Shown: positions 14,647 through 34,858, counted from the stretch's first letter. The stretch is DNA of 64,000 nucleotides from an uncultured Spirochaetales bacterium (GCA_949289575.1 CASEOG010000002.1:92590-156589), one strand, 5' to 3'. Program-made: numbers and translations. Notes: generated by a model not told the origin, from the sequence alone.

Positions 14647-15399
14647 GTGAACGAAACAAAAATTCCTTTATTGTTTGCCCACAGAGGCGGAAAAACAGAT
14701 GCTCCCGAGAATACGTTGGCGGCATTCCGGTGGGTGCTGGAAAATAAGATTCCGGCAATCGAACTGGATGTTCACCGTTGCGCAACCGGAGAGCTGGTTG
14801 TGATTCATGATTTTCATACGAAACGAATTTGCGGAACGGATTACAGTGTCGAAGAGACTCCTTTTATCGTTTTGCGTTCGCTCGACGCCGGGTCTTCGTT
14901 TGATGCCCGCTTTGCCGGAGAAAGAATACCGCTGCTTGAAGAGGTTATCGATCTGCTCGGCGACCGTGTTTTTTACGATATCGAAATCAAAACGCCCCAT
15001 TTTTTCGGCGACAGCAAATTGACGGATGATGTTCTGAAAATGGTCGGGGAAAAGGGGATTGCCCATTGCAGTATGATTTCCTCTTTTAATCCCTTTGTCG
15101 TACGGCGTGTCCGAAAGAAGGGATTTCCGTTGACGGCGGTCATTTTTGCGGAAGACGATGATGTTCCGTTTGTGTTTAAACGGGGACAGGGGTGGTATAT
15201 TGCCCGTTCCACACATCTCAAACCGGGGCGGCAGCTGATTGAGTCGGGACGGATGTGCAAAGGACTTAAAAAAAGAAATTTGCCCTTAATGACATGGACG
15301 GTTAACGATGCCAGAGAGGCTTTGCGGCTGAAAAACGCAGGTGTTGTCGGAATCTGTACCAACTGTCCGCTCACATTAAGGGATGCCGGGATTTGCTGA
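14647..15399 (+). CDS. Glycerophosphodiester phosphodiesterase (GDPD family)
   Basis: LLFAHRGG…ENT, ELDVH and IEIK motifs. GTG start preceded by AGGAG. Confidence 0.8.
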   Translation: MNETKIPLLFAHRGGKTDAPENTLAAFRWVLENKIPAIELDVHRCATGELVVIHDFHTKRICGTDYSVEETPFIVLRSLDAGSSFDARFAGERIPLLEEVIDLLGDRVFYDIEIKTPHFFGDSKLTDDVLKMVGEKGIAHCSMISSFNPFVVRRVRKKGFPLTAVIFAEDDDVPFVFKRGQGWYIARSTHLKPGRQLIESGRMCKGLKKRNLPLMTWTVNDAREALRLKNAGVVGICTNCPLTLRDAGIC

Positions 15400-20039: not shown

Positions 20040-21560
20040 GTGCCGGGTTTCCTTCGGAAGGGGTCGCCTGTTCTTCTGTTCTGTACTCTTTTCTTTTTTT
20101 TCGCTTCCGTTCACGCTTTTTCGCAGACTCTTTATTTTGTATACAGCGATCCGGCAGAAACGGAAGAAGGAAGCACTCTTTCTTACGATAAGAGGAAGGA
20201 GGAAATCAGAGAACTGATTCTTCTCGATTTACCGTTTCTTTTGGGAACGAACCGGTTTCGGGAAGTTTCCGCAGATGCCCCGAAAAGGGAAGCTCTCGAG
20301 AAAGCGATGCTTTCCCGTGTAAAGAGAGCCGACAGCGACGGAGATAACGGAACCGGTACGGAAAACGACGGTCGCGGAGAAACCGGTACCGGAACGGCTG
20401 AAGCAGCCGAATTGCCGTCAGAAGCGGAAGGAGAGAACACCGAAGAACTTTCCGACGGGGGCAGCCTGACGGAACCCGATCGGAATACAACACCGTGTGA
20501 TCCTCTTTTTGCTCTTATCGGTATCGGGGATGCTTCCGCGAAAGATGCTTTTGTTTATATACGCATCAAAAAGGCGGAAATCGGAACGCTGCCCGACGAA
20601 AGATATTTCGGTGAAACGGTATTTGATTTCTTTATGGCCTTCGATAACAGAACGGAGATTTTCCACTCGGAAATTCATGCTGTCGGATTGGCGGCCGCGG
20701 AAGAAGAGGCGATGCGGGAAATTGCTCTCTCGCTGCGGATTTCGCTTAAATCGGTACTGAATGCGCTTTTCGGTAAGGCCGGTTCACCCTATATCGTCAA
20801 TTTTATCAATAATAAAAAGGTTGTTATTGCTCACGGACGGCGTCAGGGAGCTTTTCCCGGAGCTTTTTACCGTATACTGCGGCATGAAATAGGGGAAGAC
20901 GGGGAAGTCGGTGAGCGGATTATCGGTCGGCTTTACGTGGAAAAATGTGAGGAAGACTACAGCTTCTGCCGGATTCTTTATGCCCGCGAACAGCCGGTGC
21001 CGGGAGACGGAATTTCCAAAATTCCCGGATCGGGGGTTCATCAGTCACTCGGATACGATTTGCTGATTTCTTCGCTCCCGGTTACAGAAACAGAGTCCGA
21101 TATTTATGTCAATCATCTGCTCGGATCCCGCTGGGTGGTTAACAGGGAGATGCCTGTTGCCAAGCCTGCTTTCGGGTTTGAAATCCTGACGGGAACCTCT
21201 GCCCGGCTTGATACCGTCGGCATGATGAAGAGCCCCGTCATCGGGAATATCTTTGCGGGAATGCAGGTTGACCGCTTTTTTCACCGCTTCTCTTTCTCGC
21301 CGTTTGTCGATTTGGGATTTGCGTTTACTTCCAACGCAGCGGAAAACAAAAAACCGCTTATGTGGTTTACCTGTAAGGCCGGAGCCCGGTTTCTTTGGAT
21401 GGTTCACGAGCAGGTCGGGGTTTATCTGGAGGGAGGCTATATCTCCTGGCTGGGGATTCCGGGAAAAGAGGCGGTATACGAAGATTCGCAATACATTTAC
21501 TATGCTCCGAACGATTATACCGGAGGATTCGGCGGTGTCGGCGTAACGGTTATGTACTGA
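20040..21560 (+). CDS. Hypothetical secreted protein, possible outer-membrane beta-barrel C-terminus
   Basis: Signal peptide (LLFCTLFFFFASVHAFSQ), acidic low-complexity segment, C-terminal alternating aromatic/Gly pattern ending …GVGVTVMY. Confidence 0.5.
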   Translation: MPGFLRKGSPVLLFCTLFFFFASVHAFSQTLYFVYSDPAETEEGSTLSYDKRKEEIRELILLDLPFLLGTNRFREVSADAPKREALEKAMLSRVKRADSDGDNGTGTENDGRGETGTGTAEAAELPSEAEGENTEELSDGGSLTEPDRNTTPCDPLFALIGIGDASAKDAFVYIRIKKAEIGTLPDERYFGETVFDFFMAFDNRTEIFHSEIHAVGLAAAEEEAMREIALSLRISLKSVLNALFGKAGSPYIVNFINNKKVVIAHGRRQGAFPGAFYRILRHEIGEDGEVGERIIGRLYVEKCEEDYSFCRILYAREQPVPGDGISKIPGSGVHQSLGYDLLISSLPVTETESDIYVNHLLGSRWVVNREMPVAKPAFGFEILTGTSARLDTVGMMKSPVIGNIFAGMQVDRFFHRFSFSPFVDLGFAFTSNAAENKKPLMWFTCKAGARFLWMVHEQVGVYLEGGYISWLGIPGKEAVYEDSQYIYYAPNDYTGGFGGVGVTVMY

Positions 21561-21567
21561 GAGGCGG

Positions 21568-23271
21568 ATGATGAAAAAGAATCGTATAAAAAGAAAACTG
21601 GCGGATAGCGGAATCATTTTTATCGAGAACGAATTCTCGGCTCTCCTTTTCGGAGAAACGGAAAATTGGGAAGAAAAAATCAACGCCGGTTGTCTGGCGG
21701 CGAAAATAACCGCCAAACCTGTAGCCAATTACATTCTCTGCCGTAACGGGGAGAATCCGGAGGCACCGGTAATTCCTTCCTGTTCGGATGACGAAACGGA
21801 CGGAATCGAATACGATGTGGCCGTGATCGGCGGCGGTGTTGTCGGGGCGGCTGTTCTGCGGGAACTCTCGAAATGGAACCTGAAAGCGGTTCTGTTGGAA
21901 AAAGAGTGCGATTTGGCCTTTCACGCGTCCGGCCGGAACGACGGAATGATTCATCCCGGATTTGCGGCAAAACCGGGTTCCAAAAAGGCGTACTACAATG
22001 TCCGCGGGAATGAGATGTACACGCAGCTGACAAAGGATTTAAAAGTTCCTTTTGTCCGAAAAGGTTCGATGATTCTGCTGGCAAATCCGCTGTACCGGCT
22101 GGCGGTGCCTTATATGTTGCGGCGGGCCCAAAAAAACGGCGTTCCCGGATGCCGTTATTTGTCGAAAAAAGAGCTGTACCGCGAAGAGCCGAATTTGGCC
22201 TGCCGGGCGGCCGGGGCTTTTCTGATGCCGACGTCGGGGCAGCTGTCCCCGCAAAAGCTGGTTTGCGCATTGGCCGAAAACGCGGTGCAAAACGGCGCCG
22301 CCGTGCGGTTGCAGACGGCCGCGGTGGATTTCCGTTTCGAGAAAAACCGGATTACGCAGATTGTCACCAACAGAGGCGTGATAAAAGTGCGTGCCGTAGT
22401 CAATGCGGCAGGCGGTTGGGCGGATTGGGTGGCGGCCCGTGCCGGCGACCCGCTGTTTACGCTGCATTTCCGCAAAGGCGAAGATCTCATCCTCGATAAA
22501 AAAAGTTCCGCTTTCATTCGACGGATTTATGCGATGCCGCGGCTTTCGCAGGTGAAAAGCAAATCGAAAGGAGGCGGACTGGTGCCGACGGTCGAAGGGA
22601 ACACCCTTGTCGGTCCCACTGCGCACGAAGTCTGCTCCCGGGACGATTATTCGACGGCCCGCGGTGATGTTCTCGAATTGGAAAAACATATCCGGTTAAA
22701 CGAAAAACTTTCCGACCGTCAAATCATTACCTATTTTGCCGGGATTCGGGCCTGCAGTTACGACGAAGATTTTATTGTCGAACCGTCGAAACGGGTGGAC
22801 AATCTTTTTCATTTGGCGGCCATCCAGTCTCCGGGACTGGCAAGCGCGCCGGCTTTGGCGGAAGAGGCGGTCGATTGGGTCGTCAAATTGCTCTCCCGGG
22901 AAGAACCGGTTTCTCCCAACCCCTCGTTCAACCCCGTTCGCGAAGACAAACGCTACGACTACGATCTTATGAGCGAAGAAGAAAAAGATGCTTTTCTGAA
23001 AGAAAATCCGCTCTACGGCAAAATTGTCTGCCGGTGCGAGCAGGTTTCGGAGGGAGAGATTCGGGATGTTCTCCGTTCGCCGGTTCCGCCGACAACGCTT
23101 GACGGAATACGCCATCGGGCGCGGGCAATGACGGGACGCTGTCACGGAGGCTTTTGTACACCGAAAATCGTCCGCATCATGATTGACGAACGGAAACTGA
23201 AGAGTGCCGATATCGTCAAAAAGAACCGTTTCTCGCCGCTCTTTTTCGGCGAAACGAAGGAGGAGCAATGA
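21568..23271 (+). CDS. GlpA-like FAD-dependent oxidoreductase with C-terminal BFD-like [2Fe-2S] domain (anaerobic glycerol-3-phosphate dehydrogenase-like)
   Basis: Rossmann dinucleotide fold DVAVIGGGVVGAAV, SGRNDGMIHPG motif, C-terminal CRCEQVSEGEI…GRCHGGFC BFD-type cysteines. Carries an N-terminal extension of about 75 aa. Confidence 0.7.
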   Translation: MMKKNRIKRKLADSGIIFIENEFSALLFGETENWEEKINAGCLAAKITAKPVANYILCRNGENPEAPVIPSCSDDETDGIEYDVAVIGGGVVGAAVLRELSKWNLKAVLLEKECDLAFHASGRNDGMIHPGFAAKPGSKKAYYNVRGNEMYTQLTKDLKVPFVRKGSMILLANPLYRLAVPYMLRRAQKNGVPGCRYLSKKELYREEPNLACRAAGAFLMPTSGQLSPQKLVCALAENAVQNGAAVRLQTAAVDFRFEKNRITQIVTNRGVIKVRAVVNAAGGWADWVAARAGDPLFTLHFRKGEDLILDKKSSAFIRRIYAMPRLSQVKSKSKGGGLVPTVEGNTLVGPTAHEVCSRDDYSTARGDVLELEKHIRLNEKLSDRQIITYFAGIRACSYDEDFIVEPSKRVDNLFHLAAIQSPGLASAPALAEEAVDWVVKLLSREEPVSPNPSFNPVREDKRYDYDLMSEEEKDAFLKENPLYGKIVCRCEQVSEGEIRDVLRSPVPPTTLDGIRHRARAMTGRCHGGFCTPKIVRIMIDERKLKSADIVKKNRFSPLFFGETKEEQ

Positions 23272-24929
23272 GATACGGCGAATGCGATGTGGCGGTGATC
23301 GGCGGAGGACCGGCCGGACTGGCGGCCGCAACGGCTGCGGCAACGGAAGGGGCATCGGTTTGTCTCTTCGAGCGCGAGGAAAAGACCGGCGGAATTCTGA
23401 AACAGTGTATTCATGACGGATTCGGTCTGATTCGGTACGGGGAAAAACTCTCCGGTCCCGAATATGCGTATCGGGAATGGTTGCGCTTTCGGGAAAGCGG
23501 GGCGGAGCTGCGGCTCGAAACATTCATGACGGCAGTCGAAAAAGAAGGGAACGGCTTTCTGCTGACATTGACCGACTCGCAGGGGATTTTGAAATATCGG
23601 GCAAAGACACTTGTGGTTGCCTGCGGCTGCCGCGAACGGACCGACCGCCAGGTCGGCATCCACGGCTTTCGGCCGGCCGGAATTTTTACGGCGGGTCAGG
23701 CGCAGGCTTATATCAACCTGGACGGGCGCATGCCGGCGCGCCGTTGTCTCATTTTGGGCAGCGGCGATATCGGGTTGATTATGGCGCGGCGGTTGACGCT
23801 GGAAGGAGCGGAAGTGGTCGGCGTGTACGAAATCAAGCACGAACCGGCGGGACTCAGTCGGAATATCGCCCAGTGTCTGACCGATTTTTCGATTCCGCTT
23901 CATTTGGGATGTACGGTGACGGAAGTGGCCGGTCGGGATCGGGTTGAAGGAGTTTATACGGTCAGGGTCGACAAAAATCTGGTTCCGATTGAGGGAACGG
24001 AAGAATTTGTTCCGTGCGACACGCTGATTCTCTCGGTCGGACTGATTCCGGAAAACGATGCTTTTGAGGCTCTCGGTTGGGAAATCGATCCGGTGACGTC
24101 GGGACCCCGTGTCGATTCGTGCGGAATGACCTCGGTGCCGGGTGTTTTTTCCTGCGGCAATTCGCTTCATGTCAACGATCTGGTCGATTATGTTTCCGAA
24201 AGCGGCGAAACGGCCGGAAAGGCGGCCGCCGCCCGGTGCCGCGCATCGGAGAGCCTTCCGGGACGGCCGATTCCCGTTCGGGCCGGATCCGGAGTCGGAG
24301 CGCTGGTTCCGCAGTCGGCGGCGGCCGAAGGGAGCGCCAACCCGGTCGACTTCTTTTTCCGCAGCCGGCAAACGCTTGCATCCTGCCGTTTATCGGTAAC
24401 GGCCGACGGAAAAGAGATTTTCAGCCGCCGCTACGAAACGGTGCGGCCGCCCGAAATGGAAAAGGTGACGCTCGATTTGTCGCTGCTGCCGCCCGGAACC
24501 GGGGGGCTGCTCTTTTCGCTTTTGCCCGATGAGTGCGGCAGTGTCGAATCCGAAACCGCCGGGTACGAAATCATTGACGAGACGGTCTGTATCGAATGTC
24601 CGCGCGGCTGCCGTTTGCGAATCGGGCGGCGGCCGGACGGATCAATCGCCGTTTTCGGCAACAGCTGCCCGAAAGGGAAACTGTACGGGGAGCGGGAAAC
24701 GGAGAATCCGCACCGCGTTTTGACAACCACCGTGAAAACCGTTTTCGGCGACTGTCCGCGGTTGGCGGTTCGCACCGACGGCCCCATTCCGCGGTCGGCG
24801 TTAAAAGATGCGCAGCGGCTGACGGACGCGGTGACGGTTCGGGAAGCGGTTCTTCCCGGGACGGTTTTGATACAGAATTTCGGCGGATGGGGCGTCAATC
24901 TGATTGCCGCATCCGAATGTCATCCGTAA
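23268..24929 (+). CDS. NAD(P)/FAD-dependent (pyridine nucleotide-disulfide type) oxidoreductase fused to a C-terminal DUF1667-like Cys-rich domain
   Basis: Two Rossmann motifs (VAVIGGGPAGLAAA and LILGSGDIGL). C-terminal CIECPRGCRLRI…GNSCPKG resembles DUF1667. ATGA overlap with the upstream gene. Confidence 0.65.
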   Translation: MRYGECDVAVIGGGPAGLAAATAAATEGASVCLFEREEKTGGILKQCIHDGFGLIRYGEKLSGPEYAYREWLRFRESGAELRLETFMTAVEKEGNGFLLTLTDSQGILKYRAKTLVVACGCRERTDRQVGIHGFRPAGIFTAGQAQAYINLDGRMPARRCLILGSGDIGLIMARRLTLEGAEVVGVYEIKHEPAGLSRNIAQCLTDFSIPLHLGCTVTEVAGRDRVEGVYTVRVDKNLVPIEGTEEFVPCDTLILSVGLIPENDAFEALGWEIDPVTSGPRVDSCGMTSVPGVFSCGNSLHVNDLVDYVSESGETAGKAAAARCRASESLPGRPIPVRAGSGVGALVPQSAAAEGSANPVDFFFRSRQTLASCRLSVTADGKEIFSRRYETVRPPEMEKVTLDLSLLPPGTGGLLFSLLPDECGSVESETAGYEIIDETVCIECPRGCRLRIGRRPDGSIAVFGNSCPKGKLYGERETENPHRVLTTTVKTVFGDCPRLAVRTDGPIPRSALKDAQRLTDAVTVREAVLPGTVLIQNFGGWGVNLIAASECHP

Positions 24930-24939
24930 GGAGGTTAAG

Positions 24940-26682
24940 ATGAGTCGCAAAGAAGAGTTCATGCCGCCGTGGTCCGATGAGGCCCCCGAAGCCGGCAGTT
25001 ACCGTTCCGTTTTTAAGTGGGGCGATCCGTCCGGATTCAAACATCCCAACCGGAAACTTTACCGCTACATGAAAGAACAGTTTCGGCTGACCGATGACGA
25101 TTTCCGCGTGCGCGTCAGGGAAGGACGGGAGAAAGTCTCTCTTGCCGGGATGCCCTCCCGGCTCGAGACGAAACACCGTACCGCTTTGGCGGCGATTGTC
25201 GGCGACGAAAATGCGGCCGATGACGATTACAGTCGGGTTTTTTACTCGGTGGGAAAAACGCAGGAAGAGGCGTTTGAATTGAGAGAAGGCGTCGTGAAGC
25301 ATGCGGCCGATCTGATTCTGCATCCGCGCAATACGGATGATGTGGTTGCTGTCGTCCGCTACTGCGACGACCACCGGATTCCTCTTTATGTTTACGGAGG
25401 CGGCTCTTCCGTCAACTTCGGATTTCGGCCGATGGCGGGCGGAGTCATGGTCGTGATGAATACCCACATGAACCGGCTGCTGGAAGTGAACGAACTGAAC
25501 AAAACGGCGACCGTCGAAGCCGGGATGCTCGGCCCCGCCTACGAATCGGCTTTGAACCGGGCAAAAGAGCTTTTCGGAACAAAACGAAACTATACAAACG
25601 GTCACTTTCCCCAGTCGTTCGAATACTCGAGTGTCGGCGGCTGGGTGGCAACACTCGGGTCGGGGCAGGAATCTTCTTATTACGGTGATGCTTACGATTT
25701 GGTGATGGGCGTGGAGATGGTGACGCCGCGCGGAGTGATCAATACGCATGTTTATCCGGCAACCGCAACGGGGCCGAAAATCCTCGATATGATTAAAGGC
25801 AGCGAAGGAACGTACGGTATCATCACACGGCTGACAATGAAGATTTTTTATCTGAGTGACGAAACGAAATACGGCGGTGCCTACGTCTTTAAAGACTGGG
25901 AGACGGCGGTGACGGTCTGTCGGGAAATTTCCCAAGGGGAATTCGGTTTTCCGGGAGTTTTGCGAATCTCCGATGAAGAAGAGACCGATATGGGGCTGCG
26001 GCTTTACGGTGTTGCGGGAACGCCGCTCGATACAATTATGAAACTGTTCGGTTTCAGAGAAATGAAGCGGTGTCTGATGCTTTTCCGCACCTGCGGTGAA
26101 AAACATTTTTCAAAAAATGTTTACAGGCAGGTTAAAAAAATCTGCCGCCGTCACGGCGGACTGCCGCTGACATCGTATCCGGTTAAAAAATGGGATCACG
26201 GCCGTTACCTCGATCCTTATTTGAGAGAGGACTTAAACGATTTCGGAATGGTGCTCGATACAACCGAGTGCGGTGTTACATGGGAGAATCTTCACCGGGT
26301 TCATGCCGAAGTGCGCCGTTTTGTCAAAAGCCGTCCTCTGACCGGTTGTCTGACGCATGCGTCTCACTTCTATCCCGAAGGGACCAATCTTTATTTTATT
26401 TTTTTCTGCAAAGTCAAAGATATGGAAGATTATATTTCCCTTCAAAACGGAATTTTCGAAGCCATTCAGAGAGCGGGCGGATCGCTTTCCCATCATCACG
26501 GTGTCGGCAGAATGATTGCTCCGTGGATGGAAGAGCATCTCGGCAAAAACGAAACCGATGTGCTGAAACTGCTGAAAAATCATTTCGATCCCAACGGAAT
26601 TTTCAATCCGGGGGGACAGATGGGGCTGGATTACCGTCCGGGTGATTTGAACGGGCGTGACTGGCGGGGAATCCGACGCTGA
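24940..26682 (+). CDS. FAD-linked oxidase resembling alkyldihydroxyacetonephosphate synthase (AGPS)
   Basis: AGGAGG RBS then ATG at 24940. N-terminal extension with FKWGDPSGF and LAGMPS blocks, FAD-binding PCMH domain (PLYVYGGGSSVNFG) and HHHGVG near the C-terminus as in the eukaryotic AGPS HHH loop. Judged by eye against remembered AGPS sequence. Confidence 0.6.
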   Translation: MSRKEEFMPPWSDEAPEAGSYRSVFKWGDPSGFKHPNRKLYRYMKEQFRLTDDDFRVRVREGREKVSLAGMPSRLETKHRTALAAIVGDENAADDDYSRVFYSVGKTQEEAFELREGVVKHAADLILHPRNTDDVVAVVRYCDDHRIPLYVYGGGSSVNFGFRPMAGGVMVVMNTHMNRLLEVNELNKTATVEAGMLGPAYESALNRAKELFGTKRNYTNGHFPQSFEYSSVGGWVATLGSGQESSYYGDAYDLVMGVEMVTPRGVINTHVYPATATGPKILDMIKGSEGTYGIITRLTMKIFYLSDETKYGGAYVFKDWETAVTVCREISQGEFGFPGVLRISDEEETDMGLRLYGVAGTPLDTIMKLFGFREMKRCLMLFRTCGEKHFSKNVYRQVKKICRRHGGLPLTSYPVKKWDHGRYLDPYLREDLNDFGMVLDTTECGVTWENLHRVHAEVRRFVKSRPLTGCLTHASHFYPEGTNLYFIFFCKVKDMEDYISLQNGIFEAIQRAGGSLSHHHGVGRMIAPWMEEHLGKNETDVLKLLKNHFDPNGIFNPGGQMGLDYRPGDLNGRDWRGIRR

Positions 26683-27081: not shown

Positions 27082-29157
27082 ATGAAACGGTTTGGGATTT
27101 TTGTGTTTGCATTATTGTTCTTATCGGGATACCTGTTTGCCCAGGAAAATGAGACGGCAGACGGGGCCGATGCGCCGACGGTTGAAGTAGCCGATCCTGC
27201 CGATGAACCGGCGGCCGACGATGTTGTCCGCGTGTTTGAAGGCGGGAAAAAACTGAAAGGGGTGAAGGTTTACGAGAACCGGATATACAGAGACAGTCTG
27301 AGAGGAATTTTCGGCAATTATATTGCCTCCTGGGTTATCGCCGGAGATATCAAAGACGGGCTTGACAAAACGGTAACCAATGAGGATGTGGTCGCTCTTA
27401 TGGACCGGCTCAGAGAAAAAGATGAAATCGAGTCGCTTGATTTCTATTACACATTTGATGCCAAAGATCGGGTGACTGTTCATGTTGTTCTGATTGATAA
27501 TCCCGGTTTCCGTGATTTCGAGGGAACCGTTACTCTCGACCGGATTGACTTCTACTGCCGCAACAATTTCTTTGTCAACCGCCGGGCGCTCGGTGATGCC
27601 GTTAATCTGGATAAGAAAGGAACCTACACCTCGGAGGAAATCAAGGAAGCCGTTGCGCGTATCGATGATTTATATGTTTTTAACGATATTTCCTGGGGTC
27701 TCAGAGAAGAGAAAAAGGATAAGGACGGGAATCCCGTTTATGCGCTTCAGATTATTGTTTCCGAGTACGGCGGAAGCAAGGAAGTCCGTACAAAAGAAAT
27801 TACCGTTTCCAAAATTCAGTTCCTCGGAAACTGGTATACCCAAAACTGGGTTTATTTGAGAGAGCTTGATTTCAAGGCCGGTGATACCGTTACGGTCGAA
27901 CAGCTTGATGCCGCTGCCCAGAAACTTATGAATTTGGGTGTTTGTACATCGGTAGACTGGGGTATTATTTATGATGCGGACGGTAATGTTATTCTTGTTT
28001 TTGTCACAAAAGATAAACTGACTCTGCTGCCCCAGTTTGACCTGGCGTTCGGTTCCGATCAGTTGAGACTCGGTCTCGGTTTCTGGGATAAAAACTTTTT
28101 GGGAACAAAAAGCACCATTAATTTCAAATTTACATTAAAGGACCTGATGCCGACTTTCAGTCTGGCTTTCTCGGTTCCGAAGATTGCCAATACTTACTTC
28201 AACTATGAGATGTCCGTCAGCTATGACTCGACCAATAAGTATACGGAAACAAGAGGTACGGCAGGAGAGGCTGTCGAAAAGCGGACGAAAGGTTACCGGG
28301 AAAACACGGTGAATACTTATGCAAAAGTCAGCTACTCGCTGGAATTGGCCGATTCCAAGCAGATTATGTGGTATCAGTCTTTTGCTTTTACGGTCGGATA
28401 TGACTTTATTCAGTCTCAGAAGTCCGACAGCTCCCGCTACTTGGGAATGCCCGAAAAATTTGCTACCGGTTGGCTGAATCTTGCCGAAGATTTCGAGTAT
28501 GACGAAGATTTCATCGGTTTCGGTCATTATATGAACTTCGATTTCAATTACAGTTTTAACAACTACCGTCGTGACGGCGGATACCGCGATAAAGGTATCA
28601 GTTTCAGCATTACGGATTCGATCGGTCTGCCGATTGCCCTTGACGGTTATATGACAAAAAACAGGGATGACGGATCGGCGATTACCGAAAAGATTTACAA
28701 TAAAATCGATACGAATTTCACATTCCATTATATCCCTGTTCAGTGGTTCGAATTCAAAGGTTATGTCGCAACGGGATATACCACGACCAATATCGTGGCC
28801 AAGCAGTTCTATTTCGGAAACCGTTCGCTTGCCAGAAATATTCCGACCAATATGCAGGGAAGCGGTAAAGGTTACTATAGAGGTAATTTCGACGTCTGTT
28901 TTACCCCGCCGATTCCTTATGTCAACAAAATCGTGATTATCGAATTGGACCTGTTTGCCGATGTCGGTAATTACGGAAACGACTACAAAAAGATGTGGTC
29001 GGAGATTCCTATCTGGTCGACGGGTATCGGATTTAACATTTACGTGCCTTTCTTTGAAGGTTTGTATTTGGGACTGGACCTTTCCTGGGGACCGAACAAC
29101 ATCAAGGAAAAGGACGGAAAACCGTTGTTTAACTTCGGTGTCAGCAAATTTTACTGA
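27082..29157 (+). CDS. Omp85/BamA-family-like outer-membrane protein
   Basis: Signal peptide, POTRA-like N-terminal region, long beta-strand-rich region with alternating aromatic residues, C-terminal …FNFGVSKFY with terminal aromatic typical of OM beta-barrels. Confidence 0.5.
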   Translation: MKRFGIFVFALLFLSGYLFAQENETADGADAPTVEVADPADEPAADDVVRVFEGGKKLKGVKVYENRIYRDSLRGIFGNYIASWVIAGDIKDGLDKTVTNEDVVALMDRLREKDEIESLDFYYTFDAKDRVTVHVVLIDNPGFRDFEGTVTLDRIDFYCRNNFFVNRRALGDAVNLDKKGTYTSEEIKEAVARIDDLYVFNDISWGLREEKKDKDGNPVYALQIIVSEYGGSKEVRTKEITVSKIQFLGNWYTQNWVYLRELDFKAGDTVTVEQLDAAAQKLMNLGVCTSVDWGIIYDADGNVILVFVTKDKLTLLPQFDLAFGSDQLRLGLGFWDKNFLGTKSTINFKFTLKDLMPTFSLAFSVPKIANTYFNYEMSVSYDSTNKYTETRGTAGEAVEKRTKGYRENTVNTYAKVSYSLELADSKQIMWYQSFAFTVGYDFIQSQKSDSSRYLGMPEKFATGWLNLAEDFEYDEDFIGFGHYMNFDFNYSFNNYRRDGGYRDKGISFSITDSIGLPIALDGYMTKNRDDGSAITEKIYNKIDTNFTFHYIPVQWFEFKGYVATGYTTTNIVAKQFYFGNRSLARNIPTNMQGSGKGYYRGNFDVCFTPPIPYVNKIVIIELDLFADVGNYGNDYKKMWSEIPIWSTGIGFNIYVPFFEGLYLGLDLSWGPNNIKEKDGKPLFNFGVSKFY

Positions 29158-29164
29158 TGATTTT

Positions 29165-29190
29165 GCGGCAGCCTTACGGCTGCCGTTTTT
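29165..29190 (+). terminator. Rho-independent terminator (GCGGCAGCC-ttac-GGCTGCCG plus TTTTT)
   Basis: Perfect 8-9-bp GC-rich hairpin followed by a T-run, 8 nt after the Omp85-like stop. Confidence 0.75.
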
Positions 29191-29204: not shown

Positions 29205-29867
29205 ATGGAGGAATCGACGCTGTTTTTCAAGTCGACATTCGAGCGTCTGTCCGGAGAAAAGCAGGAAAAGATACGGAGTGCTGCCATTAAAATTTTTGCG
29301 GAGAACGGTTATACGAACGCAAAGATGAAGATGATTGCCGATGAAGCCGGAATTTGTGTCGGATCATTGTATCAGTATTTCGAAACAAAGGAAGAAGTCT
29401 TTCTGGATGCGGTTCAGACAATGAAAAAAGAGCTGGAATCGGTACTGCTGCCTTTGGCTGCCGGTGACGGACCTTTCTTCGAAAAAGTGGAAACTGTTTT
29501 GAGAACCCTTCAGCGGTTTTCGCTCCGTCATCCTTATGTGAATAAGATTTACAACGAAATGACATCGGAGGGGAATTTTCAGCTTTCCATGCGGATAGCC
29601 GAAGAGATTGAAAGCGTTTCGGCGTCCTGTTACCGGACCATTATCGAAACTGCCAAAAAACAGGAATCATTTCCGCAGGCAATCGATGAAAGAATGTTTG
29701 CTTTTTGTCTGGATAACCTCTTTATGATGATGCAGTTTTCTTATTCGTGCGAGTATTACAAGGAAAGAAAGAAGATTTATCTGGGGGAAGAAAAAAGCGG
29801 TGATGACGAATTTGTTATCGCTCAAATGATGAGGTTTATCAGGGGTGCGTTCTGTTTTTCCGGATAA
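29205..29867 (+). CDS. TetR/AcrR-family transcriptional regulator
   Basis: N-terminal HTH block IRSAAIKIFAENGYTNAKMKMIADEAGICVGSLYQYFETKEEVF typical of TetR. Start chosen after the terminator hairpin. The ORF-track start at 29157 overlaps the terminator. Confidence 0.75.
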   Translation: MEESTLFFKSTFERLSGEKQEKIRSAAIKIFAENGYTNAKMKMIADEAGICVGSLYQYFETKEEVFLDAVQTMKKELESVLLPLAAGDGPFFEKVETVLRTLQRFSLRHPYVNKIYNEMTSEGNFQLSMRIAEEIESVSASCYRTIIETAKKQESFPQAIDERMFAFCLDNLFMMMQFSYSCEYYKERKKIYLGEEKSGDDEFVIAQMMRFIRGAFCFSG

Positions 29868-29967
29868 ATTTTAAAAAAAAACTTGCATTATCGGAGAAAC
29901 GGGGGTACAATATAATAAATGAACCGCAATTCATTTATTACAATTTTTTAACAGTAGGAGAATGATT

Positions 29968-31461
29968 ATGTCAAATCGACCCGGTTATGCGATACAGGAG
30001 TATCACGACACTCAAAAAGTAATGGATCAGCTGAATGCACTGATTCGTCAGCCGATTCGCGGTATTAAAAAAGAAGCGATGGATAAATATTTGGAATATT
30101 ACGAAACCAAATGTCAGAAGTCGAAGGCGATGATTCGGGAAGCGATGAATTACATCCCCGGCGGGGTTCAGCACAATCTCGCTTTTAACTATCCGTTCCC
30201 GCTTGTTTTTACAAAGGCGGAGGGTGCCTATCTGTATGATATCGACGGTAACCGGTATATCGACTTTTTGCAGGCCGGCGGTCCGACGGTGCTCGGATCG
30301 AATCCTCCGAAAATCCGGGAGAAAGTTAAAGAACTGCTGGATACCTGCGGTCCCGTGACCGGACTCTTTCACGAATATGAGCTGAAATTGGCAAAACTGG
30401 TTTGCGAAACTTATCCCGGTGTCGAATTTTTCCGCGCTTTGAACTCGGGAACGGAAGCCTGTATGGCCGCCGCCCGTATCGCACGCTGCGCAACGGGTCA
30501 CAAAAACATTGTGAAAATGGGAGGAGCCTACCACGGTTGGTCGGATCAGCTTTCTTACGGTTTGCGTGTTCCCGGACGCCGCAGCTTCGGATCGCACGGA
30601 ATTCCGAAAAATATCTTTAAATATACGCAGGAGTTCTTTCCGAACGATATCAAGTCCCTGAAACGTGTGTTGCGGAGAAATGTTCTGCGCGGCGGAACGG
30701 CAGCCGTTTATATGGAGCCGGTCGGACCCGAAAGCGGAACACGTCCGTTGGATTACGATTTCCCCAAAAAGGTTCAGGCTTTGTGTAAAAAATACGGAGC
30801 ATTACTGATTTTCGATGAAGTTGTGACGGGATTCCGCCTGGGGCCGGACGGCGCACAGGGCTATTTCGGAATTGTCCCCGACCTGACAATTTTCGGAAAA
30901 GTGATTGCCGGCGGGTATCCTTCCGCGGGTGCCATTGCCGGTCTTAATAAGTGGAGACCCTATCTTGCCGGCGGTTTGGATACCAAAAAAGAGGGCGAAA
31001 AGAAAGTCCATAAGGCTCATGTCGGCGGTACGTTGGCGGCCAATCCGCTTTCCTCTCTGGCCGGTTACTACACTGTCAAAGAGATTATCGATACCAATGC
31101 GTGCGAACGGGCCGGGGCTATGGGAGACCGTCTGACAAAAGGTCTTCAGGAGCTGATTAAAAAATACAATCTGCCGTTTGTGGCTTATAACCAGGGTTCA
31201 ATCTGCCACCTGGAGACGGTCGGTACAATGCTCTTCTCGATCAGCCTTCTGAAGTTCTGGAAGATTCCTCATGTTTTAAAAGAAACGACACGGCGTCAGA
31301 AAATGATGCAGAAGATGGGAGCCGCTTACATGGCGGAAGGAATCGTGACTCTTGCCGGAAGCCGGATGTATACCTCCGCTGCCGATACGGAAGAGATTAT
31401 TGACGATGCTCTGGCCCGTTTCGAAAGAGTCTTCAAAAATATCGCCGAAGGTGAAGAATAA
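29968..31461 (+). CDS. Class III PLP aminotransferase, glutamate-1-semialdehyde-2,1-aminomutase (HemL)-like paralog
   Basis: Fold-type I class III pattern with PLP lysine in FGKVIAGGYP (HemL-like GK[VI]IGGG[LY]P) and DEVVTGFR. ATG at 29968 has better RBS spacing than 29962. Confidence 0.7.
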   Translation: MSNRPGYAIQEYHDTQKVMDQLNALIRQPIRGIKKEAMDKYLEYYETKCQKSKAMIREAMNYIPGGVQHNLAFNYPFPLVFTKAEGAYLYDIDGNRYIDFLQAGGPTVLGSNPPKIREKVKELLDTCGPVTGLFHEYELKLAKLVCETYPGVEFFRALNSGTEACMAAARIARCATGHKNIVKMGGAYHGWSDQLSYGLRVPGRRSFGSHGIPKNIFKYTQEFFPNDIKSLKRVLRRNVLRGGTAAVYMEPVGPESGTRPLDYDFPKKVQALCKKYGALLIFDEVVTGFRLGPDGAQGYFGIVPDLTIFGKVIAGGYPSAGAIAGLNKWRPYLAGGLDTKKEGEKKVHKAHVGGTLAANPLSSLAGYYTVKEIIDTNACERAGAMGDRLTKGLQELIKKYNLPFVAYNQGSICHLETVGTMLFSISLLKFWKIPHVLKETTRRQKMMQKMGAAYMAEGIVTLAGSRMYTSAADTEEIIDDALARFERVFKNIAEGEE

Positions 31462-31476
31462 GAGAGAGGTAGCGAG

Positions 31477-32112
31477 ATGACACCGGAAGAAGCCCGAAAG
31501 ATCGTTGTCGATGCCGGAAAGCGTCTGTTGAGAGAAGGCCTCGTTGCCCGAACATGGGGAAATATCAGTCAGCGAATCGACGGAAAACATATTGCCATCA
31601 CACCGAGCGGACGTCCGTATGAAACTCTGAAGCCGGAGGATATTCCGATACTGAATATCGAAGATATGACGTGGGAAGGTCCGTACAAGCCGTCCGGAGA
31701 AAAGAAACTTCATGCGGCTGTTTATGCCGGAGATGAGAATATCCGGGCTGTGATTCATACGCATCAGATGAATGCATCAACCTGTGCCGCCGCCCGGAAG
31801 GCCGTTCCGGTTGCGGAAGAGTTTCGACCGATTCTCGGTGACGAGATTCTGTGTGCGCCGTACGGGCTTCCCGGTTCCAAGAAACTGACCAAAGGGACTG
31901 CCGCTGCCGTTTTGGGGCGGCCGGCAGCCTTTATGGCCAATCACGGAGCCGTTTGCGCCGCTGCCGATATGGAATGTGCTTTCGGGATTGCGGCTGCTCT
32001 CGAAAAGGCGTGCGGGAAATATATTCGCGATTCGTTTTCCCGTGTTTCGGGCGGAGAAGAGTGGAGTTCCGATGCGGTACGCAGTCATTATGTAAAGGAT
32101 CAGAGTGTATGA
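31477..32112 (+). CDS. Class II aldolase/adducin-family protein (FucA/AraD-like), metal ligands intact
   Basis: PSGE (Glu ligand), HTH (two His ligands) and NHGAV (third His) motifs in canonical spacing. Confidence 0.75.
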   Translation: MTPEEARKIVVDAGKRLLREGLVARTWGNISQRIDGKHIAITPSGRPYETLKPEDIPILNIEDMTWEGPYKPSGEKKLHAAVYAGDENIRAVIHTHQMNASTCAAARKAVPVAEEFRPILGDEILCAPYGLPGSKKLTKGTAAAVLGRPAAFMANHGAVCAAADMECAFGIAAALEKACGKYIRDSFSRVSGGEEWSSDAVRSHYVKDQSV

Positions 32113-32732
32113 CGGATGCAGTAAAAGAAATAAGAGCGCTGGCTGAAAAAGGATTGGCGGCACCGGACGGGGCTGTTGCGGTCCGGAAAGACGGAATCTG
32201 TTACATTTCGGTCGCGGGAGCCGATCTGAAGAATCTGAATGAGACCGACTTAATCGTCGTTCAGGACGACTCGGATGTTTCCCCCGATGTTATGCCGAAA
32301 GAATATTTTCTCTATCTGGCACTTTTCGAGCGGTTCCCCCACATTAACGTTCTCTTCAGAACGGCGACCGAATCCGTGCTGACCGCATCGATTGTCGGAC
32401 GGAAGATCAGACCGATGCTGGACGATATGGCGCAGATTGTCGGAGTTTCGGTACGCTGTGCGGATGAAGATGTTTTCGGAGATGCAAGAAAGATAGTCAA
32501 TGCGACTTCCGCGATGAAAGACAGAACCGCTTTAATGATCCGCAATCAGGGAGCGGTTTGCGCCGGTCCGACATTCGACGATGCGGAAGTTTCCGCCGTC
32601 GTCTTTGAGAAAGCGTGCAAGACGGTTATCGAAACCTCTTTCCTCGGCGGAGGTCATTACATTAATCCGATCGAGTGCTGGCTGATGCACAAAGTTTATC
32701 AGTTGAAATATTCGAAACAGGCAAAAAAATAA
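32109..32732 (+). CDS. Class II aldolase/adducin-family paralog lacking the canonical zinc-binding histidines
   Basis: Same fold pattern as the upstream gene, but the HxH and NHG positions read INVLFRT and NQGAV. ATGA overlap with the upstream gene. ATG at 32109 is in frame in ORF 31851..32732. Confidence 0.6.
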   Translation: MTDAVKEIRALAEKGLAAPDGAVAVRKDGICYISVAGADLKNLNETDLIVVQDDSDVSPDVMPKEYFLYLALFERFPHINVLFRTATESVLTASIVGRKIRPMLDDMAQIVGVSVRCADEDVFGDARKIVNATSAMKDRTALMIRNQGAVCAGPTFDDAEVSAVVFEKACKTVIETSFLGGGHYINPIECWLMHKVYQLKYSKQAKK

Positions 32733-32785
32733 GTCCGATAATCCGCGGGAGACAGTTCCTGCGGATTTTTATAAAAGGAAAGTCT

Positions 32786-34858
32786 ATGAAATATCCGAGA
32801 TTATTCGAACCGGGAAAAATCGGTTCTCTGGAAATTCGCAACCGTACGGTTATGACGGCAATGGAAATCGATTTCGGACGGTTTGACGGAAAAGTCAGCC
32901 GTTTGCAGTCCGATTACTATTATGAACGGGCACGGGGAGGAGTCGGATTGATTATCACCGGTATTACCCGTGTCGACTCTTTCACGGGGGTCGGGTCGCC
33001 GATGCAGCTTTCTGTTGCCGACAGCGGTAAAGTGCGTTCATTGCGAAAACTGACAGACCGGATTCACACCACCGGTGCGAAAATTTTCTGTCAGATACAT
33101 CATCCGGGACGGCAGTCTTATACCGCATTAATTTATGTCTGGCCGATGATGGCCTTTTTTTCCAAAATTCCGGGATTTCTCAAAATATTCGGTCCGTTGG
33201 TTTCCTTTTATAAAAAATGGATGAAAGTGACGTTTGAACCGTCTGTCGTCAGTGCTTCGGATGTCATGTGTCATCACGTCGGACAGAAAGTCAGGGCTCT
33301 GAAAACAAAAGAAGTGAAAAAACTGGTTCGCCGGTTTGTCAAAGGCGCCTGTCGTGTTAAAGCAGCCGGATTCGACGGTGTCGAAATTCACGGTGCACAC
33401 GGTTATCTGATTCAGCAATTTTTGTCGCCGAGAACCAATAAACGGACCGACGAATACGGAGGATCTTTTGAGAACCGTTTTCGCTTTTTAAAAGAAATTG
33501 TTACCGGGGTCAGAAAAGCGTGCGGACCCGATTTTCCGATTTCCGTTCGTCTTTCCGTCGATGAATTTTACAAAAACGAAACCGGTGACGGGCAGGGAAT
33601 TACGCTGCCGCTCGGGATTGAAATCGCCAAGGCAACGGCGGCATTGGGCGTCGATGCGTTAAATATTTCTTCGGCAACTTACGAGACCATTAACTACTGG
33701 CTGGAACCGGTCACATTTACACCCGGATGGCGGGCCTATCTGGCGGAGGCGGTAAAAAAAGAGGTTTCCGTTCCGGTTATTGCCGCCAATCTGATCCGAT
33801 CACCGGAGCAGGCCGAAATGCAGCTGGAGAAAGGAATTCAGGACTTTATCGGAATGGGGCGGCCTTTTCTGTGCGATCCCTATTGGGTCGAAAAGGTCAG
33901 AGAGGGGCGAGAAGAGGAGATTGTTTCCTGTATCGGGTGTCTCCACTGTTTCGAATCGTTGCTGGACGGAGCCTGGAAAGGGCAACCGATGCAGTGCGCC
34001 CGTAATCCGATTCTGGGGCGGGAAAAGCTGCTACGGACCACGGAACGGGACGGAGAAGGAAAATCGGCTGTGATTGTCGGGGCCGGGATGGCCGGCTTGA
34101 CGGCGGCCCGCTATCTGTCGCTGCGCGGCTATTCGGTCGATGTTTACGAAAAAGAGGCGGCCGCCGGCGGGCAGGTTCTGCTGGCCGAAAAACCGGACGG
34201 AAAAAAGCCGCTCGGAAATTGTGTTCGCGAAGAGTTCCGTTATTGTACGGCTGCGGGGGTTCGTTTTCATTTCTCTCATGAAATCAGTGCCGGGGAAATC
34301 GTCAATTTAAAACCGGACCGGGTCATTGTGGCGACCGGTTCGCGGCCGTTTATGCCTCCCGTAAAAGGGAAGGAACGGGAGAATTGTTACAGTGTCAACG
34401 ATATTCTCAATGAAAAGGTCTCTTTTTCCGGAAAGACGATTGCCGTGGCCGGCTCCGGGTTAACCGGATTGGAAACGGCCGCTTTCCTGGCGGAACGGGG
34501 CAATCACGTTATCGTCATCGAAATGCAGGATCGTATCGGTCCTTCCGCATACGTTCAGAATCTGGAGGATGTGACGGAACGGTTGAATAAAGCCGGTGCG
34601 GAAATGATGGTTTCCTGCCGGGTGGAAGAAATCAAAGCGGATTGTGTCAAACTGAATTTTCTCAAAGAAGGAGTCTGCCGGGAGATTGCCTGCGACGGTG
34701 TTGTTCTGGCTGTCGGTAACCGCAGCTGCCGTGATTTGTATGAAGAATTAAAAAAGATTCCTGGATTGAATGTATCGGCTGTCGGAGATACGGTTCGTCC
34801 CGGGAAAATTGCCGATGCGGTTCGCAGTGCCTGCCGGGCCGCTCTGTCCGATCGGTAA
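32786..34858 (+). CDS. FadH/NADH-oxidase-like oxidoreductase: N-terminal Old-Yellow-Enzyme (FMN TIM-barrel) domain, 4Fe-4S linker and C-terminal FAD/NAD(P)-binding domain
   Basis: QIHHPGRQ OYE motif, CIGCLHCFES…C (CxxCxxC-x11-C) cluster, GAGMAGLTAARYL and VAGSGLTGLE Rossmann motifs. ATG at 32786 is preceded by AAAGGAAAG. Confidence 0.7.
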   Translation: MKYPRLFEPGKIGSLEIRNRTVMTAMEIDFGRFDGKVSRLQSDYYYERARGGVGLIITGITRVDSFTGVGSPMQLSVADSGKVRSLRKLTDRIHTTGAKIFCQIHHPGRQSYTALIYVWPMMAFFSKIPGFLKIFGPLVSFYKKWMKVTFEPSVVSASDVMCHHVGQKVRALKTKEVKKLVRRFVKGACRVKAAGFDGVEIHGAHGYLIQQFLSPRTNKRTDEYGGSFENRFRFLKEIVTGVRKACGPDFPISVRLSVDEFYKNETGDGQGITLPLGIEIAKATAALGVDALNISSATYETINYWLEPVTFTPGWRAYLAEAVKKEVSVPVIAANLIRSPEQAEMQLEKGIQDFIGMGRPFLCDPYWVEKVREGREEEIVSCIGCLHCFESLLDGAWKGQPMQCARNPILGREKLLRTTERDGEGKSAVIVGAGMAGLTAARYLSLRGYSVDVYEKEAAAGGQVLLAEKPDGKKPLGNCVREEFRYCTAAGVRFHFSHEISAGEIVNLKPDRVIVATGSRPFMPPVKGKERENCYSVNDILNEKVSFSGKTIAVAGSGLTGLETAAFLAERGNHVIVIEMQDRIGPSAYVQNLEDVTERLNKAGAEMMVSCRVEEIKADCVKLNFLKEGVCREIACDGVVLAVGNRSCRDLYEELKKIPGLNVSAVGDTVRPGKIADAVRSACRAALSDR

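Follow-up and report, generated by a model that had tools for sequence, protein, structure and literature searches.

Why would a bacterium keep a HemL-like aminotransferase beside a pair of overlapping aldolase genes? The question is raised by a five-gene block (positions 29205-34858) in 64,000 nucleotides (64 kb) of DNA from an uncultured Spirochaetales bacterium (GCA_949289575.1 CASEOG010000002.1:92590-156589). We call this whole stretch the window and count all positions from its first letter. Our answer, to which we give a probability of about one half, is that the block encodes a putative TetR-repressed catabolic or detoxification module, with the aminotransferase (AT) and a zinc-dependent aldolase of the dihydroxyacetone phosphate (DHAP) type at its core and, in many other genomes, an FGGY kinase as their partner. 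The module is best described as a variant of the kinase-aldolase sugar pathways, combining a TetR-regulated transaminase with a split aldolase and, in some loci, a kinase. A full-text literature search found no paper describing this gene combination, only precedents and context. The remark in a first-pass annotation of this DNA that the set matches no described pathway holds for TetR, the AT and the aldolase pair, which form a real functional unit.

All five genes lie on the plus strand at the positions first noted, and their domain matches are far beyond chance (E-values 1e-13 to 1e-77). In order, they encode a 220-aa TetR-family regulator (29205-29867; Pfam TetR_N, 50 bits), a class-III pyridoxal 5'-phosphate (PLP) aminotransferase of HemL-like fold, AT (29968-31461; 497 aa; Aminotran_3, PF00202, 175.5 bits against a gathering threshold of 30.5), the aldolase-fold proteins Ald1 (31477-32112; Aldolase_II, 139 bits) and Ald2 (32109-32732; Aldolase_II, PF00596, 66 bits against a gathering threshold of 22), and a 690-aa reductase predicted to use flavin mononucleotide (FMN), a [4Fe-4S] cluster and flavin adenine dinucleotide (FAD) with NAD(P)H (32786-34858; Oxidored_FMN, 258 bits, and Pyr_redox_2, 109 bits). 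Pfam thus confirms the compact same-strand block that the first-pass annotation had described. The AT open reading frame (ORF) opens at 29962, giving 499 aa, with an alternative start at 29968 that gives 497 aa. The second is probably the true start, its ATG being preceded at a distance of 7 nt by the ribosome-binding site TAGGAG; the gene call in a near-identical public contig is likewise 497 aa. In a Spirochaetia metagenome-assembled genome (MAG), GCA_034120015.1, AT is 99% identical to that of the window.

Which of these genes belong together can be judged from other genomes. ORFs were called in the collected loci, their neighbours were clustered and the loci were re-scanned with tblastn; the counts below refer to 87 independent loci, i.e., those outside the window's own lineage. 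The AT family is found in at least 593 species from Spirochaetota, Bacillota, Desulfobacterota, Bacteroidota, Actinomycetota and Pseudomonadota. Family members share 62-71% identity between Leptospira, Oceanispirochaeta, Sphaerochaeta, Bacillota (Acutalibacteraceae among them), Desulfobacterota, Bacteroidota and Actinomycetota; those of Butyrivibrio and Burkholderia are 55-59% identical. An Ald1-type aldolase lies near AT in 77 of the 87 loci and an Ald2-type in 72; next come a XylB-like FGGY kinase (39), an orthologous TetR (24), a split transketolase (21), a second HemL-like aminotransferase (20), a major facilitator superfamily (MFS) transporter (14), a GtrA-like small membrane protein (8) and an aldehyde dehydrogenase (ALDH) of the ALDH3 family (6). 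The conserved core of the module is therefore AT plus aldolase, with AT its most conserved component. Across phyla, AT is far more conserved (62-71%) than its partners Ald1 (38-54%), Ald2 (28-39%) and TetR (35-47%), perhaps because the enzyme works in a complex, because its chemistry is demanding or because it has spread horizontally in recent times. Whether all five genes keep company elsewhere, a matter on which the first-pass annotation had staked its gene set, has a divided answer: TetR, AT and the aldolases recur together across phyla, and the reductase does not (0 of 87 loci). The FGGY kinase, the ALDH3-type dehydrogenase and the transporters, by which the pathway is recognised in other genomes, were out of that annotation's sight.

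Individual loci show how the parts are combined. On a Burkholderia ambifaria CF3 plasmid, TetR is divergent from a series encoding FGGY kinase, aldolase, AT, a hypothetical protein, a short-chain dehydrogenase/reductase (SDR) and ALDH; a Butyrivibrio fibrisolvens D1 plasmid has FGGY kinase, aldolase, GtrA and AT; and in a Bacillota MAG (L044), TetR, FGGY kinase and ALDH are divergent from AT and an aldolase fusion. In both cultured organisms, B. ambifaria and B. fibrisolvens, the module sits on plasmids between insertion sequence (IS) elements. The kinase scores 291 bits to the XylB model against a cutoff of 380, and it is not FucK- or RhaB-like. The co-operonic ALDHs fall in class 3, with 284-348 bits to the dehydrogenases of benzaldehyde, fatty aldehydes and steroid aldehydes and to ALDH3A1, and at most 171 bits to other classes.

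AT itself is routinely misread. Its best NCBIfam matches are models of HemL (glutamate-1-semialdehyde 2,1-aminomutase) and it is 37% identical to E. coli HemL over 370 residues, with the PLP lysine kept: AT FGKVIAGG aligns with HemL LGKIIGGG, and K313 is invariant in the AT family. However, it fails the HemL equivalog test, scoring 261 bits to TIGR00713 against a cutoff of 527 and 274 bits to PRK00062 against 398. Identities are bimodal as well: hemL genes annotated on plasmids and chromids share only 31-34% identity with AT, while AT-family members are at least 55% identical (55-59% for those on plasmids and chromids). In an HMMER alignment to solved HemL, the Arg of the GGVNSPVRAF motif (Arg32), which binds the substrate carboxylate, falls in a gap, and the AT segment there, GGVQHNLAFNYPFPLVF, has no basic residue. 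AT also differs from HemL in having a 50-residue N-terminal extension and another C-terminal domain, which weakly matches aminoglycoside C-6' aminotransferases and not HemL, and the full-length protein aligns with D-phenylglycine aminotransferase. Arg468, invariant in the AT family within the motif AGSRMYTSA, looks, to judge from the motif, like the Arg with which ordinary class-III transaminases bind a carboxylate; the motif also has to serve for a comparison with Glu406 of HemL, because the two C-terminal parts align ambiguously. Matches in the subfamily include GntE, PigE and GenB-type enzymes, which act on aldehydes or ketones of sugars and polyols. Given the low HemL scores, the missing Arg32 counterpart, the identity gap and the C-terminal domain, we predict that AT is more likely a true transaminase that is HemL-like by fold only. 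The label of HemL-like aminomutase in the first-pass annotation therefore survives as a class-III, HemL-like fold and fails as an identity, the score being half the equivalog cutoff and Arg32 missing; and AT does not fall inside orthologous HemL, the outcome that the annotation had named as damaging to its proposal, since hemL genes are only 31-34% identical to it.

The aldolase is the second part of the core. To compare its two halves, 78 Ald1-type and 71 Ald2-type sequences were aligned to E. coli FucA, whose numbering is used throughout (the FucA sequence agrees with PDB alignments). The metal ligands Glu73, His92, His94 and His155 are all present in window Ald1, and none of the four is present in window Ald2. 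Across the family, Ald1 keeps T26, G28, N29, G44, E73, H92, H94 and H155 in 78 of 78 sequences. With these residues FucA binds zinc and the DHAP phosphate, H92, H94 and H155 being the zinc ligands and E73 the catalytic Glu. The phosphate pocket, in FucA N29, T43, G44, S71 and S72, is kept too: N29, S/T at 43 and G44 in all 78, S71 in 77 and S72 in 71, with Gly at position 72 in the window protein. In essentially all sequences, the zinc and phosphate residues of FucA and Ald1 are identical. The loop that bears Tyr113 in FucA is variable in Ald1. In Ald2, E73 is mostly Ala, H94 mostly Lys or Thr and H155 mostly Asn, and the phosphate pocket is not conserved; exactly at the FucA Tyr113 position, all 71 Ald2 sequences have Leu-Asp-Asp (LDD), and the C-terminal tail is conserved as …LM+xxYxx(K/S)Y(S/A)K, ending …MHKVYQLKYSKQ.

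The equivalent loop and tail of FucA and of AraD (L-ribulose-5-phosphate 4-epimerase) extend into the active site of the neighbouring subunit, and in AraD a loop Asp and a Tyr of the neighbour's C-terminal tail serve as acid/base. The simplest reading is therefore that Ald2 is a complementing subunit of an alternating heteromer, completing the Ald1 active site after duplication and complementary loss. In such an obligate heteromer, Ald1 would give the zinc and phosphate site, and Ald2 would give the Asp-Asp loop and the Tyr-containing tail in trans. The start codon of Ald2 and the stop codon of Ald1 share the sequence ATGA, an overlap that would suit translational coupling of the two subunits. 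Other arrangements of the same parts occur: in Bacteroidota and Desulfobacula loci a single gene encodes a 217-aa aldolase that combines the metal site with the PPILDDMAQIIGP loop and the tail, Acutalibacteraceae have an Ald1-Ald2 fusion of ~400 aa, and a 299-aa Butyrivibrio protein joins to Ald1 no more of Ald2 than its loop and tail. The two overlapping class II aldolase-fold genes of the first-pass annotation are real (both match Aldolase_II); its description of one as active and the other as degenerate is right for the metal ligands and probably wrong if it implies a dead copy, for Ald2 keeps LDD in 71 of 71 sequences as well as the tail.

As for specificity, Ald1 comes nearest among solved structures to 6btd, a "fuculose phosphate aldolase" of Bacillus thuringiensis (105 bits), with FucA next, and Ald1 fails the FucA equivalog test (TIGR01086, 81 bits against 400). 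AraD shares the class II aldolase fold, and the module has an invariant Asp-Asp loop and a Tyr-containing tail; however, scores are far below the AraD cutoffs, no pentose genes lie nearby and the module's acid/base elements are on a separate, metal-free subunit. For the fused Ald1-Ald2 proteins, an epimerase subfamily model is the best NCBIfam match.

Regulation by TetR recurs as well. TetR orthologues (35-47% identity, full length) adjoin the AT gene in Leptospira, Bacillota and Sphaerochaeta, and the window has both the N-terminal helix-turn-helix of its TetR (the TetR_N match of 50 bits) and a palindrome at the promoter. Between tetR and the AT gene, a sigma-70-like promoter is predicted (29883-29911, plus strand; TTGCAT, 17-nt spacer, TACAAT; read from sequence), and directly after its -10 box lies the candidate TetR operator (29913-29940), a perfect palindrome TAATAAATGAA-N6-TTCATTTATTA whose 11-nt arms are 100% complementary and which is kept in a contig of a 99%-identical MAG (L001). 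Other phyla with an orthologous TetR have a different but conserved operator, GTGAGTGA-N4-TCACTCAC (consensus (A/G)TGAGTGA-N4-TCACTCA(C/T)), found in Leptospira, many Bacillota and Sphaerochaeta: 29 matches in 21 loci against 3.8 expected from shuffles, in one or two copies and mostly no more than 350 bp upstream of the AT gene. Since this operator is conserved in loci with an orthologous TetR, TetR control of the AT operon is, we infer, ancient and conserved, operator binding being predicted from sequence. TetR would bind the palindrome overlapping the operon's transcription start and would be released, presumably by the substrate or an intermediate. The TetR linkage proposed earlier is thus upheld by orthologues in 24 of the 87 loci and by a conserved predicted operator before AT. 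An Rfam scan of the block found no riboswitch and no other Rfam family.

What reaction sequence could such parts carry out? Catabolism of fucose (FucI-FucK-FucA-AldA) and rhamnose (RhaA-RhaB-RhaD) and 5-deoxyribose salvage (DrdK-DrdI-DrdA) offer the closest parallel: an FGGY-type or analogous kinase and a class II zinc aldolase yield DHAP and an aldehyde, which an aldehyde dehydrogenase then handles. The module would be alike in these respects and differs in others. The fucose and rhamnose pathways use an aldose-ketose isomerase, whereas the module has none and its constant partner is a class-III aminotransferase; FucA has Tyr113 where the module has the Asp-Asp loop, and the module's aldolase is split into complementary subunits; and the module kinase is XylB-like rather than FucK- or RhaB-like, and all curated cutoffs are missed. 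A sugar kinase gene is linked to the aldolase gene in 39 of the 87 loci, with no kinase in the 64-kb window.

The conserved phosphate pocket and zinc-enediolate machinery, together with the XylB-like kinase, argue for a phosphorylated, ketose-like aldolase substrate. Because there is no isomerase and a transaminase is the invariable partner, AT most plausibly turns an amine at C2 into the C2 ketone. For a retro-aldol cleavage to set DHAP free, C1 (phosphorylated), C3 and C4 must all bear hydroxyls, so the parent compound would be a 2-amino-1,3,4-triol, either a 2-amino-2-deoxy-alditol or a phytosphingosine-type long-chain base. The PLP transaminase would turn its C2 amine into a ketone, giving a ketose-like 1,3,4-trihydroxy-2-one; a kinase, whose gene is not in the window, would phosphorylate C1 before or after transamination; and the aldolase would cleave C3-C4 to give DHAP and an aldehyde. 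In some lineages an ALDH3-type dehydrogenase would oxidise the aldehyde, and here the adjacent FMN/FeS/FAD reductase may handle it. The logic would be that of L-fucose or L-rhamnose catabolism with a transaminase in place of the aldose-ketose isomerase. The ALDH3-type genes in six operons would support the release of DHAP and an aldehyde indirectly. Of the chemistries open to the aldolase, the C-C cleavage suggested in the first-pass annotation is the most plausible.

There are precedents for the first step. The class-III aminotransferase FumI of Sphingopyxis deaminates C2 of a sphinganine-like aminopentol (PMC3136697), and the azasugar GabT1-type class-III aminotransferase acts at C2 of fructose 6-phosphate (PMC8382821). 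Like the proposed AT, both interconvert a C2 amine and a C2 ketone on a polyol or ketose phosphate; both are, however, only distantly related to AT (PDB 6hbs, E = 4e-23), and these enzymes have as partners an esterase, or a phosphatase and a dehydrogenase, where the module has a kinase and an aldolase.

The identity of the substrate is a further step down in confidence. Class-3 ALDHs suggest that the aldehyde produced is hydrophobic. A long-chain base of the phytosphingosine kind, possibly from plant or fungal sphingolipids, would then be a likelier substrate than a hydrophilic amino-alditol; this is our leading guess. Weak further hints in the same direction may be seen in the GtrA-like and SCP2-like proteins, the plasmid/IS location and the class-III aminotransferase precedents. 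We suggest, tentatively and well below even odds, that the module could be a widespread bacterial route for degrading or detoxifying phytosphingosine-type bases (2-amino-1,3,4-triols) via DHAP and a fatty aldehyde. For example, C18 phytosphingosine would give DHAP and pentadecanal, and the transketolase variant described below would handle 2-amino-1,3-diols such as sphinganine. A related route, from sphingosine or sphinganine to DHAP and hexadecanal or 2-hexadecenal, would explain an enal reductase and was rejected on chemistry, because DHAP release by retro-aldol cleavage needs the C3 and C4 hydroxyls and 1,3-diols fit only the transketolase.

Several points weigh against a kinase-aldolase module, or against its long-chain substrate. 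No cluster-type FGGY kinase, MFS transporter or transketolase was found in the 64-kb window by tblastn, and no kinase lies within 10 kb of AT in the window or in Leptospira loci L002 and L003; in kinase-less loci, either the kinase is encoded elsewhere or the substrate arrives phosphorylated. FGGY kinases are known to act only on small hydrophilic sugars, not on lipids, and the MFS transporters resemble organic-anion carriers. The Asp-Asp loop could bind an ammonium group instead of acting as acid/base, in which case the substrate would keep its amine, and the class II aldolase fold also supports epimerase, dehydratase and decarboxylase chemistry. The reductase, at a guess, may process an unsaturated or aldehyde product in place of ALDH/SDR, or it may be a mere neighbour. 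Finally, the model explains the transketolase variant only loosely. In ~20 Acutalibacteraceae/Clostridia loci without an FGGY kinase (L005-L007, L021, L022, L026, L029, L032, L033, L035, L039-L041, L047, L049, L051, L054, L056, L065, L066, L073, L084), a divergent operon ~2-6 kb upstream of AT encodes a 255-aa protein, a split transketolase, the second aminotransferase (420 aa, HemL/GntE-like) and a protein of 272 aa whose SCP2 match is borderline (21.5 bits; hhalign probability 55%). Kinase and transketolase are nearly mutually exclusive, occurring together only in L057, and the variant is confined to one clade with shared synteny. It fits a kinase-free cleavage of HOCH2-CO-CHOH-R ketols.

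Some neighbours were seen in particular lineages. In five related Clostridia loci (L020, L024, L027, L031, L037), an MtnN-like nucleosidase gene (PNP_UDP_1) is divergent, ~350 bp upstream of AT. Salvage of an S-adenosylmethionine (SAM) by-product, considered for this neighbour and for the likeness to DrdA/MtnB and 6btd, was rejected: the nucleosidase is in those five loci only, and there is no isomerase or MtnK. In Desulfobacterota, a HAD-IB hydrolase gene (PF12710) is divergent to the FGGY kinase (L004 15379-16056, L090 16006-16674, L091 14471-15139); the nearest named relatives of its product are histidinol-phosphatases, which act on amino-alcohol phosphates. In Cytophagales/Roseivirgaceae MAGs (L063 14213-21053, L083 6190-7716), AT, FGGY kinase and aldolase are followed by an extracytoplasmic function (ECF) sigma factor, a FecR-like anti-sigma factor and SusC/SusD, a system resembling a polysaccharide utilization locus that may import the substrate. 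FadL/Toluene_X, another hint at a lipid substrate that stayed weak, was found in one locus only.

The alternative that survives best would make the reductase an integral last step of a five-enzyme pathway, as the first-pass annotation proposed, reducing an activated C=C or C=N bond made by AT and the aldolase (an enal/enone or a cyclic imine). The reductase shares the strand of the other genes after a 53-bp gap, and the gene order is kept in relatives whose reductase is as little as 72% identical. However, the five-gene order including the reductase occurs only in close relatives that share synteny over the whole region (BamA-like genes at one end, rlmN and the his genes at the other), and they may simply have inherited the linkage. 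Outside the window's lineage the reductase is near AT in 0 of 87 loci, and homologues at 57% identity stand in unrelated contexts, adjoining MMPL, sulfatase and polysaccharide-lyase genes. Moreover, the intergenic gap between Ald2 and the reductase contains a hairpin (32740-32774, plus strand; 12 bp, then UUUUUAU) with a folding free energy of -19.2 kcal/mol (z = -3.65, no shuffle folding as well), kept in L001 and likely a partial terminator or attenuator, and a promoter-like site lies there likewise. The reductase is a lineage-specific accessory outside the conserved module, contrary to its place in the first-pass gene set, and we consider the five-enzyme pathway unlikely, though not negligible.

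The enzyme itself was well described in the first-pass annotation as a FadH-like three-cofactor reductase: Oxidored_FMN, Pyr_redox_2 and the four-Cys cluster motif are all present, with C382, C385, C388 and C404 invariant among 10 homologues. Within the superfamily of FadH, naphthoyl-CoA reductase and amine dehydrogenases, it belongs to a family of ~690 aa, without a characterised member, that is frequent among Spirochaetota and Smithellaceae. The solved structures nearest to it are those of FadH (1ps9, the best at 252 bits), naphthoyl-CoA reductase and histamine dehydrogenase. These enzymes reduce enoyl- or aryl-CoA or oxidise amines, which speaks for an integral last step. FadH, 2-naphthoyl-CoA reductase, BaiCD and bilirubin reductase have the same three-cofactor architecture and four-Cys motif, but the window protein reaches only about half of the curated cutoffs (BaiCD 425 of 825 bits, bilirubin reductase 395 of 750, mycofactocin OYE-2 412 of 793) and has an insertion of ~35-40 mostly hydrophobic residues directly after HHPGRQ (residues ~113-150; …ALIYVWPMMAFFSKIPGFLKIFGPLVSFYKKWMKV…). 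This insertion is common to ~690-aa homologues in Spirochaetota, Smithellaceae and Actinomycetota. Its conservation next to the active-site motif of the old yellow enzyme (OYE) domain also speaks for a part in the pathway. It sits where OYE enzymes carry an active-site cap.

Somewhat less credible is that the core runs in the direction of synthesis, the aldolase condensing DHAP with an aldehyde and the transaminase aminating the resulting ketose phosphate, to give an amino-polyol, a compound resembling an iminosugar or a signal resembling a lipid base; regulation and export would then fall to TetR and MFS, and the reductase would act on a cyclic imine. Azasugar biosynthesis is the precedent, opening with a PF00202 aminotransferase on a ketose phosphate and having a PF12710 phosphatase in Chitinophaga (PMC8382821), and the HAD gene (PF12710) adjoining the kinase in Desulfobacterota loci may be set beside it. 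The Acutalibacteraceae pairing of transketolase and second aminotransferase also resembles a ketol-forming and aminating sequence. Against this, kinase and aldehyde dehydrogenase in the same operons point to breakdown, a plasmid location between IS elements is frequent for accessory catabolic traits, and genes for a specialised metabolite seldom combine such high sequence conservation with so wide and patchy a distribution. Azasugar biosynthesis itself was dropped: the signature AFRREPFP… of the azasugar aminotransferase was not seen by eye in the window AT, and the triad completed by a phosphatase and a dehydrogenase is missing. Overall, we find a biosynthetic role doubtful.

We have a little less faith still in AT as a HemL-type aminomutase acting on an alpha-amino aldehyde, which would turn a 2-amino-aldose into a 1-amino-ketose or rearrange an amino-aldehyde released by the aldolase, with the Asp-Asp loop of Ald2 binding the ammonium group. 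The family's best matches to HemL models and the 37% identity to E. coli HemL favour it, as do two invariant acidic residues in the aldehyde-side pocket. Opposed to these are the lack of a counterpart to Arg32, the ordinary-transaminase-like motif around Arg468 (judged from the motif), the closeness of the C-terminal domain to aminoglycoside C-6' transaminases and of the full-length protein to D-phenylglycine aminotransferase, and the chemistry: phosphorylation at C1, needed for DHAP to form, is impossible in a 1-amino-ketose. That AT is the organism's real HemL for tetrapyrrole synthesis, with unrelated neighbours, has next to no chance, for the resemblance is at family level only, the score is 261 against 527 bits, hemL genes are 31-34% identical where the family is at least 55%, the constant partner is an aldolase and no heme genes appear in the gene maps examined.

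The block is bounded at its 5' side by a terminator-like hairpin (29165-29186, plus strand; 9 bp, 7 of them GC, and a T-run), found by a terminator scan and an inverted-repeat search, which ends the upstream BamA-like gene; at its 3' end the block is convergent with rlmN. That upstream gene, encoding a POTRA-containing outer-membrane protein of ~690 aa (27082-29157), is single-copy in the window, just before tetR; two tandem copies stand in the 99%-identical MAG contig (L001 4850-9186) and in more distant relatives (L092 14-4408). Further upstream on the same strand are a glycerophosphodiester phosphodiesterase gene (14647-15399) and three genes with overlapping or abutting starts (21568-26682), encoding a DAO plus BFD-[2Fe-2S] dehydrogenase, a Pyr_redox_2 plus DUF1667 protein and an FAD-linked oxidase. 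Together these genes resemble an anaerobic glycerol-3-phosphate dehydrogenase-type set, and such a set would also feed DHAP. The ORFs at 17965-20025 and 20040-21560 have no Pfam match at E <= 1e-5; the latter (506 aa) was suspected to be a glycerol kinase, and this was dropped on that result. A radical-SAM ORF resembling spore photoproduct lyase (11700-13070; PF20903, 63 bits) is also present, in a spirochaete.

What does a module of this kind mean for the bacteria that carry it? As an orphan module it spans at least 593 species in six or more phyla; abundant Clostridia of the gut, rumen Butyrivibrio, Leptospira and Burkholderia are among its carriers. Its AT is routinely mis-annotated as HemL or as "aspartate aminotransferase family". 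With the module solved, thousands of annotations could be put right. The aldolase gives a clear example from nature of a gene that was probably duplicated and whose copies then lost complementary parts, with all stages observed (single gene, split overlapping pair, full fusion, and minimal fusion that keeps only the trans-acting loop and tail), and is a useful model for how "pseudo-enzymes" stay essential. The conserved candidate TetR operator offers a handle for ligand discovery. If solved, the module would provide a new entry route into glycolysis, from amine to ketose phosphate to DHAP, and it might explain how bacteria use or detoxify sphingoid bases or other amino-polyols. Sphingoid-base metabolism is still unresolved in Pseudomonas (PMC11398299). 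Should the phytosphingosine reading prove true, the module would be an alternative to the eukaryotic sphingosine-1-phosphate lyase route that does not depend on a PLP lyase, and it would bear on the bacterial metabolism of antimicrobial sphingoid bases.

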